Positions 187 to 4,146 of a DNA stretch of 4,294 nt are shown one piece after another (the first letter of the stretch is position 1; each line of letters begins with the position of its first letter). The position numbers were made by a program, and so were the translations under genes. This DNA is from Escherichia coli (GTDB taxonomy: Bacteria > Pseudomonadota > Gammaproteobacteria > Enterobacterales > Enterobacteriaceae), in NCBI RefSeq assembly GCF_003334385.1, contig NZ_QOWN01000084.1. The stretch is one strand, 5' to 3'. The notes beneath the pieces were generated by a model. It was given only the letters and a program-made list of their open reading frames with translations, was not told the DNA's origin and searched no databases.

Positions 187-930
187 ATGATGTGTAAGAG
201 CGTGTCTTTATGTTTTTTATTGATATTTGGCATTGTGTTGAATGTTTATGCTAATTCTGAGTTTACAAAAAATAATAGTGTGTCATTGTCTTCGACTAGA
301 GCTGTTTTTAAATCTGGGAATACTAGCGAAGGATTAGGTGTTAAAAATAACTCAAAAGAGTCAGTTTATTTAATTAGAAGTTGGATTACTGATTATCACA
401 CTAATAAAGTGGATGATTCTAAGTTTCTGATAACACCACCTCTTCTAAAAATAAAACCCGACTCAACATATCAGTTAAAAATAAATAAAATATCAAACGA
501 TATGCCGACTGACAGAGAGTCTATATATAAAATAAATGTAATGGCCATCCCTGTTAATGGAGGGCAAAATGGACCTTCATCTAGTGAAATTTCTGGGGGG
601 GTATCACTTTCCGTTACGCACACTATAAAAATGTTCTATCGACCTGAGTCTATAGATAATAAAACAAATATGAATTCAATAGATGATTTCATATCAGCTA
701 ATTACGAGGAGGGTATCTTAAATATTGAAAACAAATCACCATTTTTTGTTACATTTGCAAATTTAATAACTGACAAAGAAAGTTTATATGCTCATTTAGC
801 TAAAGAAGGAATGGTGTCTCCATTTGGGAACATCCAAATCAGAACAAAGACAAAACCCAGGACTCTTACTTACCAAAGAATTAACGATTTCGGTGGCGTA
901 ACATTGGAGAAAATTATTGATGTTAAGTAA
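187..930 (+). CDS. Periplasmic pilus assembly chaperone, PapD/FimC family (short F1-G1 loop, FGS-like)
   Basis: 247-aa ORF with an N-terminal signal peptide (MMCKSVSLCFLLIFGIVLNVYA). It shows hallmark chaperone motifs in the conserved order: STRAVF...LGVKNNSKESVYLIRSWI (compare the canonical TRVIY...L.V.N......YLIQSW), FLITPPLLKIKP (compare F.VTPPLFRL), DRESIYKINVMAIP (compare DRESLFW.NVK.IP) and KMFYRP (compare KL.YRP). The F1-G1 region is short, as in FGS rather than FGL chaperones. The family assignment comes from recalled consensus motifs, not a search. Confidence 0.93.
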   Translation: MMCKSVSLCFLLIFGIVLNVYANSEFTKNNSVSLSSTRAVFKSGNTSEGLGVKNNSKESVYLIRSWITDYHTNKVDDSKFLITPPLLKIKPDSTYQLKINKISNDMPTDRESIYKINVMAIPVNGGQNGPSSSEISGGVSLSVTHTIKMFYRPESIDNKTNMNSIDDFISANYEEGILNIENKSPFFVTFANLITDKESLYAHLAKEGMVSPFGNIQIRTKTKPRTLTYQRINDFGGVTLEKIIDVK

Positions 931-3358
931 CAAATGGCGTGACATAAAGTTCATTCTTGCATCTTTAATGTCAATTTCGATTTGTAAGGCGTCTGAATTA
1001 GATCGATTTAACCCTGATTTCTTAAGAGTATCTGATGGCGTAAATGCTAAAGAAATTGATTTAACGTACTTTGAAAAAAATGATGGACTTCCTCCAGGAA
1101 ATTATCAGGTGTGGATATACATTAATGGGGAAAAAGTTGGTAATAAAAGTCTAAACTTTAGAAGAAATAAAGACCAAAAAGGTATTCATGCCTGTTTTAA
1201 CAAAGGGGATTTAAGATCGTGGGGAGTAATTAATTCGATATCAGAAGAAACTGTCTGTGAAATAGGATTAACATCCGTTATTGATAATTCTTACGAGCTT
1301 TTCAATGAAAAAAAAATGGAGTTACATCTTTACTTTCCTAATTCTATGCTTGAGCGTCGAAAATGGAGGAGTTTACCTGTAACATGGAATCAAGGCATTC
1401 CCGCTTTTCTGTTAAATTATAATTACACAGGAATTTCTCAGAGATTAAACAAGAAAAATGAAGATAATTATTTTCTGAGAGTTGATAGTTCATTAAATAT
1501 CAATCGCTGGAGATTAAGAACTGAAACTTCAATGATGAAAAATAATAAAAATAGTGGGAATGAGAATGTTTATCTCGAAAGGGATTATGAGCAATACCAA
1601 GGTGGACGTATTGTTATTGGAAACTCATATATAAATAGTGAGCTTTTTGATAACTTTCCATTCAAGGGAGTTAAGTTCTCATCTGATGATTCAATGCTTG
1701 ATTCTTCATTTTCGGAATTCACCCCGAGTATTAGAGGTATTGCACATAGCCCATCAATAGTTACTGTTAAACAAAACGGAAATATTGTTCTTCAAAAGGA
1801 AGTTCCTGCTGGAGTATTCGAAATTGATGATATCCCTTATAATTTTGGTGGGGACTATATTATTGAGGTTAATGGTTCTGATGGGGTAAAAAATACATTT
1901 ACACAAGCTAATGCATCTCTACCTTTTCTGCAAAAAGAAGGGCGTACAAATCATTATTTAGCATTAGGTAAGTTAAGACATCAATATGGTACAGATACCT
2001 ATGAACCGAATTTTATTCTATATCATATCGCAAAAGGTTTAAGGTTTGGAAATACATTACATCATGGTGGAATTATTTCTAATGAATATAAATCAATTTT
2101 GTTTGGTGGAGGAACCTATCATCCATACTTAGGTGCTTTTTCAGTTGATTATACTTTCTCTGAAAGAGAAGATAGAAAATATGAAGGGCGAGGGCGAGGT
2201 GATAAGTTTGAATTTTCTTATTCAAGGAATATAGATTTAACAAGTGCAAATTTATCTATGCATATGAACATTTTCGATAAAGATTACCTTAACTTTCAGG
2301 AGCATGCGTATTCTTTCAATGGAAATGCAAATACATATGAAAAAACGAAACGAAACTTCGGGGTGCGCTTAACGCAACCTATTGATTATTACGCAAATTT
2401 TTCGCTGCAGTTTGATAAATATTCATATTATAAAAACAGAGATGATAGTTACAGTTTCTTAACATCAATAAGTACTAACTTCAAAAAAATAAGTAGTTCA
2501 TTATCACTTGGATATAATAAGTTTTTGGGAGTTAAAGATGCAGATAAAACAATAAACTTTATGATTTCATTACCTTTATGGAATGGCATAAGTTCAAATA
2601 ATTTCATATCTTCCTCTTCCGAGGGCGCAAGAATCCAGTCTGGTGTATCAGGATTTTTAGAAGAACAACAGTTATCATGGGGGGTGTCGCATGAATCTAA
2701 TAAATCAGTTGCAACTACAAATTCAAGTGTTAATTGGAAGACATCGTTTTCACAGATAAACGGAGCATATTCGGTTAATAATGACATGAACCGTCTATTT
2801 ATGGGGATTAGAGGTGGGGTGGCCATACATGATAAGGGGATAACATTTTCTCAACCTCTGTCTTTTGAGGGGGGCAATGCTTTAGTAGATGCAAATGGAA
2901 TTAGTGATATTGTCATTAACAATAATAGGGTTCATACGGATTATTTTGGTAATGCTATTGTAACAGATTTATCTCCATACCAAAAAAATAACATTTCAGT
3001 TAATTTGTCAGCTACTTCAGATGCTATCGATATAACTAATACTGATACATATGTAGTTCCATCCCACGGGGCTCTAACTTATGTCGAACTAAATGCGGTT
3101 AAAGGAAATAGGGTGCTATTTAAGTTAAATAACAAGTCTCAAAAAATACCATTGGGAGCGATGGCTACAATAACTGGCCGTGGATTTAAGAAAACAGAAT
3201 TTATTGGTTATGATGAGAAACTATATATGAACGGTGTTCCTGAAAAAGGGGTGGTTGTCGTAAAATGGAGTGTTGGGGGGGAGGATTATGCTTGCACATC
3301 AAAATACAGCATAAGGAATAAAAAAAGCCTAAATATTCTTTCATTGATGTGCAATTAA
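920..3358 (+). CDS. Outer-membrane fimbrial usher protein (PapC/FimD family)
   Basis: An approximately 812-aa ORF immediately following the chaperone, the typical size for an usher. The N-terminus has a signal peptide followed by the usher N-terminal-domain motif FNPDFL and PGNYQVWIYINGEKVG (compare the canonical PG.Y.VD.Y.N). The extreme C-terminus carries the cysteine pair typical of usher C-terminal domains (DYACTS...SLMCN). The ORF track starts at TTG 917; I place the start at ATG 920, which has a GGAGA element about 10 nt upstream. The start overlaps the chaperone stop (928-930) by 11 nt, consistent with translational coupling. Confidence 0.93.
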   Translation: MLSNKWRDIKFILASLMSISICKASELDRFNPDFLRVSDGVNAKEIDLTYFEKNDGLPPGNYQVWIYINGEKVGNKSLNFRRNKDQKGIHACFNKGDLRSWGVINSISEETVCEIGLTSVIDNSYELFNEKKMELHLYFPNSMLERRKWRSLPVTWNQGIPAFLLNYNYTGISQRLNKKNEDNYFLRVDSSLNINRWRLRTETSMMKNNKNSGNENVYLERDYEQYQGGRIVIGNSYINSELFDNFPFKGVKFSSDDSMLDSSFSEFTPSIRGIAHSPSIVTVKQNGNIVLQKEVPAGVFEIDDIPYNFGGDYIIEVNGSDGVKNTFTQANASLPFLQKEGRTNHYLALGKLRHQYGTDTYEPNFILYHIAKGLRFGNTLHHGGIISNEYKSILFGGGTYHPYLGAFSVDYTFSEREDRKYEGRGRGDKFEFSYSRNIDLTSANLSMHMNIFDKDYLNFQEHAYSFNGNANTYEKTKRNFGVRLTQPIDYYANFSLQFDKYSYYKNRDDSYSFLTSISTNFKKISSSLSLGYNKFLGVKDADKTINFMISLPLWNGISSNNFISSSSEGARIQSGVSGFLEEQQLSWGVSHESNKSVATTNSSVNWKTSFSQINGAYSVNNDMNRLFMGIRGGVAIHDKGITFSQPLSFEGGNALVDANGISDIVINNNRVHTDYFGNAIVTDLSPYQKNNISVNLSATSDAIDITNTDTYVVPSHGALTYVELNAVKGNRVLFKLNNKSQKIPLGAMATITGRGFKKTEFIGYDEKLYMNGVPEKGVVVVKWSVGGEDYACTSKYSIRNKKSLNILSLMCN

Positions 3359-3444
3359 AATCAGATGGAGGTTTATGATGGAATGTCATTTTTATATTGC
3401 TTTTACGCCATGATCTTCTTTGTATATTTCTAATTATCTTTTTC

Positions 3445-3476
3445 TGTTGTTTTTTTATCTCTGCTTGTTGTTTTTT
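3445..3476 (+). repeat. Two copies of an 11-bp direct repeat (TGTTGTTTTTT) in the usher-pilin intergenic region
   Basis: TGTTGTTTTTT occurs at 3445-3455 and 3466-3476, spaced 21 bp (about two helical turns), inside a pyrimidine-rich tract upstream of the pilin gene. It could be a regulator-binding or promoter element, or simply T-rich low-complexity sequence. Confidence 0.3.
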
Positions 3477-3544: not shown

Positions 3545-4105
3545 ATGTTTAAATTGAATAAGATTTATTGCGCCGTTCTCCTGACTGGCTTATTAAGTAC
3601 TTCAGTTTCCGCTGCTGATATTAGTGGTGCTACTCAAGATAAGTTTATCCTCCAAGGGACGGTAACCCAACCAACTTGTACTGTTTCACTGGATAATAAA
3701 GATATCGATTTTGGTAATTTTAATGCACAGGAAATTAATGAAAAATCTCCAGGTAGTCTATTAAAACAAAATATGGTTCATTTCACACTATCTAATTGCC
3801 CGGCAGGTCAGGCTAAAATTCTTCTGAATGGATGGTCAGGTACGACGACTACCAACCCTACTTATGTAAACTTCTCAGGAAATATGAATGCACTTGCGAT
3901 ACGCGTAGCTAATGGACAAACGAAAAGAGCAATGAATCTCAATGGTCAGGATGGCGCAAACCATGTGATTAATATCACAAATACTACTTCACAAGATTTT
4001 CCGTTGTATTTCTCACTTATTAAGTCTCCGGGTGCCAATGCCAAACAGGTAGTCAACGGAAACTCGTTTAAGGCGACTCTTAACTACAATATCGTCTATC
4101 CATAA
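3545..4105 (+). CDS. Fimbrial subunit (FimA-like pilin; major or minor subunit undetermined)
   Basis: 186-aa product starting at ATG 3545 with a classical signal peptide (MFKLNKIYCAVLLTGLLSTSVSA, predicted cleavage before ADISG). The mature protein has the pilin disulfide pair (PTCTV ... SNCPAG), a G.V...TC.V motif near the N-terminus as in type 1/P pilins, and a C-terminal beta-strand with alternating hydrophobic residues and a penultimate Tyr (ATLNYNIVYP), the motif recognised by CU chaperones. The weak AGGG ribosome-binding site lies 9 nt upstream. The ORF track's GTG at 3506 would add an uncharged hydrophobic extension and is less likely. Confidence 0.85.
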   Translation: MFKLNKIYCAVLLTGLLSTSVSAADISGATQDKFILQGTVTQPTCTVSLDNKDIDFGNFNAQEINEKSPGSLLKQNMVHFTLSNCPAGQAKILLNGWSGTTTTNPTYVNFSGNMNALAIRVANGQTKRAMNLNGQDGANHVINITNTTSQDFPLYFSLIKSPGANAKQVVNGNSFKATLNYNIVYP

Positions 4106-4121
4106 ATATAAAGTTATATTT

Positions 4122-4146
4122 AAATAGGGACTTTGTCCCTATTTTT
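4122..4146 (+). terminator. Rho-independent terminator downstream of the pilin gene
   Basis: Perfect 10-bp inverted repeat AAATAGGGAC (4122-4131) / GTCCCTATTT (4135-4144) with a 3-nt loop, running into a T tract (TTTTT at 4142-4146), 17 nt after the pilin stop codon. Confidence 0.65.

Follow-up and report, generated by a model that had tools for sequence, protein, structure and literature searches.

A divergent chaperone-usher-pilin cluster with a permuted gene order amid insertion-sequence debris on Escherichia coli plasmids

The 4,294-nt stretch of Escherichia coli DNA analyzed here, called the window below (contig NZ_QOWN01000084.1), has a G+C content of 32% and carries three open reading frames (ORFs), all on the same strand, for the chaperone, usher, and pilin of a chaperone-usher (CU) system. 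Each of the three proteins is full length and keeps the key residues of its family. Systems of the chaperone-usher kind are already well known, and the cluster is ordinary in this respect. What is new, and the only thing that is unusual, is the order of its genes and the great divergence of its proteins. The genes are as follows.

187..930, plus strand: periplasmic PapD-type chaperone, 247 amino acids (aa); Pfam, PDB matches, alignment
920..3358, plus strand: outer-membrane usher, 812 aa from the ATG at 920; Pfam, PDB matches
3545..4105, plus strand: single-domain FimA-like pilin, 186 aa; profile matches, alignment, AlphaFold model

A preliminary description of the window, made from its letters without database searches, had listed only a chaperone, an usher, and one single-domain pilin of 186 aa. 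The ORFs are as given there, and domains, profiles, and a structural model agree with the assignments. The usher start overlaps the chaperone stop by 11 nt, with a TTG at 917 ahead of the ATG at 920. The protein has an N-terminal domain, a barrel with plug, and a C-terminal domain, and it covers the Pfam models nearly completely (PapC_N, 7e-27, positions 2-145 of 146; Usher, 4e-115, 2-548 of 549; PapC_C, 1e-6, 6-64 of 66). Among solved structures the usher and the chaperone are closest to FimD and FimC at about 28% identity, with PDB matches of 4e-85 to FimD versus 2e-54 to PapC for the usher and of 3e-24 to FimC, 2e-19 to PapD, and 1e-10 to Caf1M for the chaperone. The best NCBIfam models for the usher (PRK15193, LpfC, and FimD) reach scores about a third of the curated cut-offs, and the chaperone likewise matches LpfB far under its cut-off. 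In a collection of 5.8 billion proteins, the best usher match outside its own 90% cluster is 34% identical.

The chaperone (PapD_N, 5.9e-26; PapD_C, 3.3e-10) has a signal peptide cut after VYA, and it retains the conserved arginine (in STRAVF) and lysine (in TIKMFYRP) by which such chaperones anchor the subunit C-terminus; both align with the positions in FimC, PapD-type chaperones, and Caf1M. It was aligned with 14 reference chaperones by MAFFT, and the lengths of the loop and of the N-terminus were counted by hand. Caf1M, CstA, and CssC, which belong to the chaperones with a long F1-G1 loop (FGL), all carry an aligned pair of F1/G1 cysteines. Because the mature window chaperone contains no cysteine, the defining FGL feature is absent. 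Its F1-G1 loop, taken from the conserved IP motif to the G1 strand, is 16 aa long, compared with 11 in FimC, 11-15 in the relatives described below, 17 in CssC, 18 in CstA, and 26 in Caf1M. The mature N-terminus ahead of the conserved arginine measures 15 aa, versus 7 in FimC, 9-10 in the relatives, 15 in CstA, and 19 in Caf1M. Judged on its sequence, the chaperone is of the short-loop (FGS) type by its missing disulfide and overall similarity, with a loop and an N-terminus that are somewhat lengthened and intermediate. The preliminary description had called the loop short and FGS-like; this is only roughly right, since the protein is FGS-like in lacking the cysteine pair and the loop is not notably short.

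Sequence and predicted structure indicate that the third ORF encodes a FimA/PapA-type, immunoglobulin-like pilin with an N-terminal extension. An upstream GTG at 3506 would lengthen the protein to 199 aa, but it is the 186-aa form that appears in public gene annotations. The pilin has a signal peptide cut after VSA, an N-terminal donor strand of alternating hydrophobic residues (KFILQGTV), and a C-terminus that ends in NIVYP. Pfam returned no match, either to PF00419 or to any other model. NCBIfam matches to FimG (9e-11) and StaE (3e-10) lie far under their cut-offs, and the PDB sequence match is FimG (3e-5). In an alignment with remote pilins, Cys45 and Cys85 are invariant, and Gly173 and the penultimate Tyr185 are nearly so. 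Modeling, which the preliminary description had proposed, gave a FimA-like fold (AlphaFold, 22-sequence alignment; mean pLDDT 80.9, pTM 0.74). The best structural match of this model in the PDB is FimA (E 3e-8, TM 0.64/0.77), followed by FimG, PapA, and other classical subunits; subunits of the Caf1, Saf, Afa, or aggregative adherence fimbriae (AAF) types are not among the first 50 matches.

Relatives of the pilin are few. Only 11 proteins among 1.84 billion representatives match it at E <= 0.001. Word-indexed protein searches with the single sequence or a profile returned only the pilin itself and a few pilins of Pantoea and Hafnia, and tblastn against plasmids found no match. Its nearest full-length relative, P0061, is 29% identical and is the first gene of a classical operon (locus L013). 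In that operon, identity to the window proteins is 38% for the chaperone and 31% for the usher. The nearest homologs P0063 (L037) and P0074 (L035) also occupy the slot of a major pilin. Because its best full-length homolog is the first gene of L013, the window pilin is considered to be of the major-pilin type, and the distinctive point is therefore that its gene comes last rather than first.

The systems nearest to the window as a whole are unnamed, AT-rich, mostly plasmid-borne clusters, with identities of 30-34% for the usher, 30-38% for the chaperone, and at most 29% for the pilin. They include clusters of Salmonella enterica Give plasmid pCFSAN024229 (usher WP_023972477.1), of E. coli LR890266.1 / NZ_CP107167.1, and of plasmid 3 of the enterotoxigenic E. 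coli (ETEC) strain E1441 (usher WP_001736029.1). Like the window cluster, they are uncharacterized, belong to the same usher and chaperone lineage, and are AT-rich, plasmid-borne, and flanked by insertion sequences (ISs). Their gene contents are given here.

L013, metagenome: pilin, pilin fragment, chaperone, usher, 311-aa adhesin
L018, Salmonella Give plasmid: pilin, chaperone, usher, 296-aa protein
L032, pSCU-152-1: pilin, chaperone, usher, 308-aa fimbrial protein
L011, metagenome: usher, then adhesin-like gene
L020, E. coli LR890266.1: pilin, chaperone, usher; no adhesin
L031, ETEC E1441 plasmid 3 (NZ_LR883014.1): pilin, chaperone, usher; no adhesin
L037/L038, E. coli assemblies: pilin, chaperone, usher; no adhesin

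The pilin gene stands first in every relative examined, and a two-domain adhesin of 296-311 aa is present in L013, L018, and L032. The other arrangement, an adhesin-less triplet with a single pilin, occurs within the same usher lineage in L020, L031, and L037/L038. In the relatives the pilin precedes the chaperone by 43-74 bp, whereas in the window it lies last behind a 186-bp spacer. On sequence comparison, the chaperone-usher-pilin order of the window reads as a permutation of the pilin-first order of all relatives examined. An origin of the permuted order by tandem duplication is unsupported, and no direct repeat joins 4106-4216 to 22-186.

Two further observations concern the relatives themselves. 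The adhesin-less triplets recur on E. coli plasmids and adjoin SPATE autotransporters, a KatP-like peroxidase, or AraC fragments, and none of these triplets seems to have been named or studied. In L013, a 91-aa ORF at 2451-2726, between pilin and chaperone, corresponds to the C-terminal half of a pilin paralog, and this fragment is evidence of subunit-gene turnover in the lineage.

Neighbor-joining trees of 15-16 taxa, which contained no gamma2, gamma*, beta, or pi references, grouped the window usher with those of L011, L018, and L020 (bootstrap 100%) and the window chaperone with those of L013, L018, and L020 (96%). These groups lie apart from FimD/SfmD/ElfC/YraJ (98-99%), from Caf1A/CstB/CssD, and from HtrE/YehB. 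Deeper joins have bootstrap values of 4-33%: the usher group was joined to the FimD/SfmD/ElfC/YraJ cluster at 25% (16 taxa), and the chaperone group was sister to Caf1M/CstA/CssC at only 33%. On these sequences the window lineage is best described as a distinct branch of gamma-type ushers, for which the Fim-like group is nearest by score. In a published classification, yad is assigned to gamma4 and CS12, CS18, and CS20 to gamma2 (PMC5216030). The literature searched, including a report of novel CU loci in ETEC that lack known colonization factors (PMC5216030) and a catalog of CU systems in E. coli (PMC3559732), describes no matching locus. A close match to an already characterized operon, which the preliminary description had named among the findings that would overturn it, was found neither in these papers nor in the databases.

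The operon plan of the gamma1 clade (major pilin, chaperone, usher, minor subunits, and two-domain adhesin, as in fim and sfm) is not followed in the window, which has no upstream pilin gene and no adhesin gene. The missing genes were sought in seven loci from public assemblies, each 11-21 kb long, by tblastn with 27 pilin, adhesin, chaperone, and usher proteins, among them Caf1, CstH, the Fim subunits, and proteins of the closest relatives. Only the chaperone, usher, and pilin were found. There was no second pilin or adhesin within 10 kb on each side, and no remnant of either in the flanks or in the native DNA adjoining the regulator described below; the wider locus thus holds neither the upstream pilin nor the downstream adhesin for which inspection of the flanks had been advised. 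A 115-aa upstream ORF was considered as a pilin fragment and was rejected, being GC-rich, without a family match, and located inside IS-type DNA.

The chaperone is preceded by 165 bp of native DNA without a pilin 3' end, and in the relatives the pilin stop lies within 43-74 bp of the chaperone. Because this upstream DNA carries no pilin 3' end and a terminator follows the pilin, both ends look like genuine operon ends. The preliminary view that the chaperone is the first gene agrees with this finding, but it depends on those 165 bp before IS debris is reached. The short ORF end noted upstream is indeed not pilin-like; it consists of the final 21 bp of an IS630-type remnant, and native DNA begins at base 22.

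Could the single pilin instead serve a system encoded elsewhere? Its gene follows the usher, where fim-type operons place minor subunits, and its best sequence matches, FimG and StaE, have invited the idea that it is a minor, adaptor, or tip subunit (FimG-like) whose partner, a major pilin or an adhesin, would be encoded at another site of the plasmid or on the chromosome. We regard this as very unlikely. The nearest homologs (P0061, P0063, and P0074) occupy the position of a major pilin, FimA rods are the structures that the model matches best, and the seven loci, which are parts of 131-137-kb plasmids, contain no other subunit gene within 10 kb. Chaperone-usher systems are also generally specific for their own subunits.

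A regulator gene is linked to the cluster. An AraC-family protein of 277 aa, similar to Rns and CsvR, is encoded divergently on the minus strand (L006, 2277-3110), 3.3 kb upstream of window base 1, and the gene is present on the opposite strand at every locus that reaches that far. Its full-length matches include Rns (4e-29) and CsvR (2e-27), and the plasmid-encoded AggR, VirF, and CfaD share 30-33% identity with it. The closest plasmid relative, at 45% identity, is on LR890266.1 (L020), where it lies beside the related pilin-chaperone-usher triplet and two SPATE-type autotransporter genes. An Rns-like regulator thus adjoins L020, and an AraC-family fragment adjoins L031. The regulator gene and the 650 bp before it have about 30% G+C, like the CU block, and the DNA between them is IS-type, with 45-58% G+C. 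This IS3, IS91, and IS630 debris splits the regulator from the operon, from which it has been parted by later insertions. Linkage of an Rns-group AraC activator to fimbrial genes is a feature of the colonization-factor loci governed by Rns, CfaD, or AggR. With the IS block removed, the locus would present a divergent regulator-operon pair, as in caf1R / caf1M-caf1A-caf1, and near to that of CS3.

In layout, therefore, the window resembles polyadhesin systems, with the order chaperone, usher, subunit and no two-domain tip adhesin. Caf1 of Yersinia pestis (caf1R, caf1M, caf1A, caf1) offers the closest parallel: a divergent AraC-family regulator, a chaperone, an usher, a single subunit, and nothing further. 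Caf1 is a single-subunit fiber assembled without a two-domain adhesin. The clusters for CS3 (cstA-H) and AAF (aggDCBA) also run from chaperone and usher to subunits, and they are plasmid-borne, AT-rich, and IS-flanked. Both are activated by regulators of the Rns/AggR family (PMC6392122). The preliminary description had remarked on this likeness to FGL systems. The remark holds for the layout, and extends to the divergent AraC-family regulator, but it does not carry over to the proteins.

If the cluster belonged to the FGL polyadhesins, like Caf1, CS3, or AAF, its product would be a thin, non-pilus fiber or a capsule. The shared layout, the lengths of the chaperone N-terminus and F1-G1 loop (near those of CstA and CssC), and the weakly joined position of the chaperone group beside Caf1M/CstA/CssC all point in this direction. 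Such membership is nonetheless largely refuted, and we consider it highly improbable. The cysteine pair of Caf1M, CstA, and CssC is missing; FimC and FimD give far better scores with the window chaperone and usher than Caf1M and Caf1A do; and no polyadhesin subunit, Caf1 itself included, appears among the top 50 structural matches of the pilin. The longer loop and N-terminus of Caf1M separate the two chaperones further. CS3 and AAF differ from the window in having gamma3/FGL chaperones with the cysteine pair and two subunit genes, and the window usher is just 25% identical to CstB.

Type 1 fimbriae, together with the Fim-like fimbriae Lpf and Bcf, are instead the best-scoring solved or curated relatives of all three window proteins; for the pilin these are FimG by sequence and FimA by fold. 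They share with the window an FGS chaperone without a disulfide and a pilin with a glycine-containing N-terminal donor strand. The differences are considerable. Identity is about 28%, in the neighbor-joining trees the window usher falls outside the FimD/SfmD/ElfC/YraJ group, and the NCBIfam matches are far under cut-offs. The window has no upstream major pilin, no FimF/FimG/FimH set, and no two-domain adhesin, and its pilin comes last. Type 1 fimbriae also use the fimB/E switch, whereas the regulator associated with the window cluster is of the AraC/Rns type.

Sequence and model together suggest a self-contained, Rns-type-regulated CU system that polymerizes one FimA-like pilin into a homopolymeric fiber, with a permuted gene order that copies the Caf1/CS3 layout. 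This is the reading that we prefer, and we judge its chances of being right and of being wrong to be about equal. Under this proposal, the chaperone would cap the open groove of the pilin in the periplasm and hand the pilin to the usher, which would polymerize it by donor-strand exchange into a fiber of one subunit type. Because there is no two-domain adhesin, the usher would be opened by chaperone-pilin complexes alone, as in Caf1A. Any binding activity would be carried by the homopolymeric fiber itself, as in K88, K99, or Caf1. Transcription would start before the chaperone and probably again in the 186-bp spacer before the pilin. The Rns-like regulator would activate both starts, and the hairpin that follows the pilin would terminate transcription. 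The non-coding regions involved, and the ends of the window, are listed here.

1..21, no strand assigned: outer end of an IS630-family remnant (225 bp), left arm of the bracketing inverted repeat; inverted-repeat match
22..186, plus strand: native AT-rich non-coding DNA 5' of the chaperone; sequence, motif scan
3359..3544, plus strand: usher-pilin spacer of 186 bp, T-rich and unusually long; direct repeat, motif scan
4123..4148, plus strand: hairpin like an intrinsic terminator, AATAGGGAC-TTT-GTCCCTATT followed by TTTTT; RNA fold
4217..4273, no strand assigned: IS2-type terminal fragment, interrupted by the right-hand IS630-type remnant; database matches of 4201-4280
4274..4294, no strand assigned: outer end of the inverted right-hand IS630-family remnant; inverted-repeat match

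Promoters recognized by AggR and Rns are described by a rule in which an A/T tract plus TATC lies 21-23 bp from the -10 element (PMC6392122). On the coding strand, this rule is matched once in each non-coding region. The 165 bp upstream of the chaperone include a T9 tract at 136-144 and, at 85-95, a weakly matching site of the AggR/Rns type, AAGGATTTATC, which is followed after 23 bp by AATGAT; the motif scan has an expectation of 0.04 matches in each region. Within the same region, TTGTGT-16-GATAAT at 129-156 is a possible chaperone promoter, judged on its sequence. In the spacer, GTTTTTTTATC (3449-3459) is separated by 22 bp from TATTGT (3482-3487) and forms a candidate activator-dependent promoter. 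It lies in the second of two tandem 21-bp direct repeats that occupy 3434-3475, TTATCTTTTTCTGTTGTTTTT / TTATCTCTGCTTGTTGTTTTT, each of which begins with TTATC. The motif, with a chance occurrence of about 0.13, is no more than suggestive of an activator-dependent promoter before the pilin. A comparable arrangement, TTTTTTTTATC-21-TACAAT, precedes the pilin gene of the ETEC relative L031. In the window as a whole there are 9 matches to the AggR/Rns rule versus 3.5 expected, and because such matches are not rare in this AT-rich DNA, they are a lead rather than evidence. A scan for consensus promoters and terminators gave nothing useful in the intergenic regions, including 22-186 and the terminator hairpin, and Rfam has no match anywhere in the window.

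The terminator noted in the preliminary description is real as a structure, with its hairpin and T-run. Its stem of 9 bp contains GC pairs and spans 4123-4143, directly after the pilin. The 61-nt stretch 4100-4160, which includes an upstream A/T hairpin, folds at -14.5 kcal/mol (z = -3.8), and none of 200 shuffled sequences folds as well. Two smaller observations belong to the non-coding DNA. Both of the 21-bp repeats open with the TATC core of Rns/AggR sites, and their spacing equals two helical turns. A 43-aa ORF at 59-190, which ends 4 nt inside the chaperone gene, resembles nothing known and is probably not a gene.

Several observations weigh against a working single-pilin system. L011, L013, L018, and L032 carry an adhesin-like gene after the usher, and at the level of sequence the pilin is most similar to FimG, which is a minor subunit. 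Both promoter and activator sites match weakly. IS debris begins 165 bp upstream and 111 bp downstream, so close on both sides that flanking genes could have been removed. The usher is frameshifted in two of 11 copies (L007 and L009), both of the second allele described next. The remaining diversity is near-clonal, with five single-nucleotide polymorphisms (SNPs), and thus gives almost no power to detect selection.

These counts come from the 11 loci in which the window is complete: eight match it exactly, and the other three have the second allele, which differs by five substitutions. By codon positions assigned by hand, four are synonymous, and the one non-synonymous change replaces asparagine with aspartate in the usher. 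One usher lesion expands A9 to A10 at 1308-1316 (L007), and the other deletes a C at 1720; the remaining 9 of the 11 copies have intact chaperone, usher, and pilin genes. This pattern is consistent with some constraint on the genes, either present or recent, and with occasional loss, and the numbers are too small for firmness.

Many of these points can be assembled into a different account, in which the cluster is a decayed or cryptic remnant. A classical pilin-chaperone-usher-adhesin operon would have been rearranged and truncated by ISs, losing its adhesin and its link to the regulator, and would now make no fiber and simply hitchhike on a successful plasmid. Remnants of IS630, IS91, IS3, and IS2 do lie on both sides and between regulator and operon, relatives retain the pilin-first order with the adhesin gene last (L013, L018, and L032) or after the usher (L011), two ushers are frameshifted, and the near-identity of copies everywhere speaks for recent spread rather than selective maintenance. 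We hold this account to be unlikely, though it deserves serious consideration. The tblastn searches showed no trace of an adhesin or second pilin, and the native upstream DNA and the terminator after the pilin resemble true operon ends. The ORFs are intact, with their key residues, in most copies, and synonymous SNPs outnumber non-synonymous ones 4 to 1. In addition, adhesin-less triplets have arisen repeatedly and independently in the lineage.

The genomic setting of the cluster was assembled from loci fetched by way of the pilin (ten) or the chaperone (four), including CP065621.1 (137 kb) and the NCTC contig UGDE01000002.1 (131 kb). All share one arrangement. From the left, IS66 and IS110 elements are followed by the AraC-family gene (272-277 aa) on the opposite strand, an IS3-family fragment, an IS91-family transposase, and an IS630-family fragment. 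Then come the chaperone, usher, and pilin, the inverted second IS630 fragment, an IS66-type element, and finally genes for ccdAB, ParA, an integrase, and microcin B17. The cluster is plasmid-borne and, with 32% GC, is best explained as horizontally acquired, and it sits amid IS debris on AT-rich islands of E. coli IncF-like plasmids. In L001, L002, and L006, the microcin B17-type genes (McbB, YcaO, and nitroreductase), ccdAB, and partition genes lie about 8-10 kb downstream of the pilin, and the carrier is therefore taken to be an IncF-like microcin plasmid.

Many draft genomes of E. coli and metagenomes of the human gut encode the three proteins in identical form. The chaperone occurs with its exact sequence on 184 contigs and the pilin on 211, and a contig index lists the pilin in 507 blocks. 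Megablast with the whole window showed no copy of the cluster in 5,426 complete RefSeq E. coli genomes or in 72,556 PLSDB plasmids, where only the IS2-type end at 4201-4288 was matched. Native AT-rich DNA is restricted to base 22 through about 4216. Beyond it, 4201-4280 is 92-97% identical to thousands of E. coli and Klebsiella records, at several places per genome. The fragment at 4217-4273, which is taken to be the left end of IS2, is also common in Salmonella and Shigella records.

The window consists of 4252 bp of unique DNA enclosed by two inverted IS630-type remnants. In L006, these form an inverted repeat of 225 bp (6253-6477 / 10730-10953, 97-98% complementary), whose inner ends are window bases 21 and 4274; within the window, the repeat is reduced to 20 nt (2-21 / 4274-4293). 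An ORF inside the repeat arm matches the NCBIfam model transpos_IS630 (1.2e-15). Because the window is exactly the unique DNA between two repeats, many contigs of about 4.3 kb are found. Inversion of the bracketed segment, or its movement as one block, is possible in principle.

Should the cluster be active, a further, uncharacterized adhesive fiber would be encoded on E. coli plasmids that occur commonly among publicly available isolate genomes and in metagenomes of the human gut. An active cluster would also show that, in the absence of a two-domain adhesin, a single FimA-like subunit is enough to start and run an usher of the FimD kind, a point that bears on how ushers are activated. Because its proteins are so divergent, the cluster would escape typing schemes based on known colonization factors. 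If it is instead a remnant, it represents one more case of IS-driven erosion of plasmid fimbrial loci.

A broader proposal, which we consider improbable, is that the cluster and L020, L031, and L037 form an unrecognized class of Rns-regulated, adhesin-less, single-pilin fimbriae on E. coli virulence-type plasmids, built of FGS or type 1-like parts and arriving independently at the Caf1/CS3 design. Were this true, the window chaperone, with its longer N-terminus and loop and no disulfide, would be a natural intermediate between rod-forming FGS and fiber-forming FGL systems, and the cluster might be an overlooked colonization factor in hundreds of human-gut E. coli samples.

Finally, the window contains homopolymer tracts that are unexpected in DNA of 32% GC. 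These include G7 at 595-601, in the F1-G1 loop of the chaperone, and G7 at 3275-3281, in the C-terminal domain of the usher; further tracts are the A9 in the usher and the T9 upstream of the chaperone mentioned above. Variation in their length, of which the A10 form in L007 is an observed instance, could reflect either phase variation or sequencing error.

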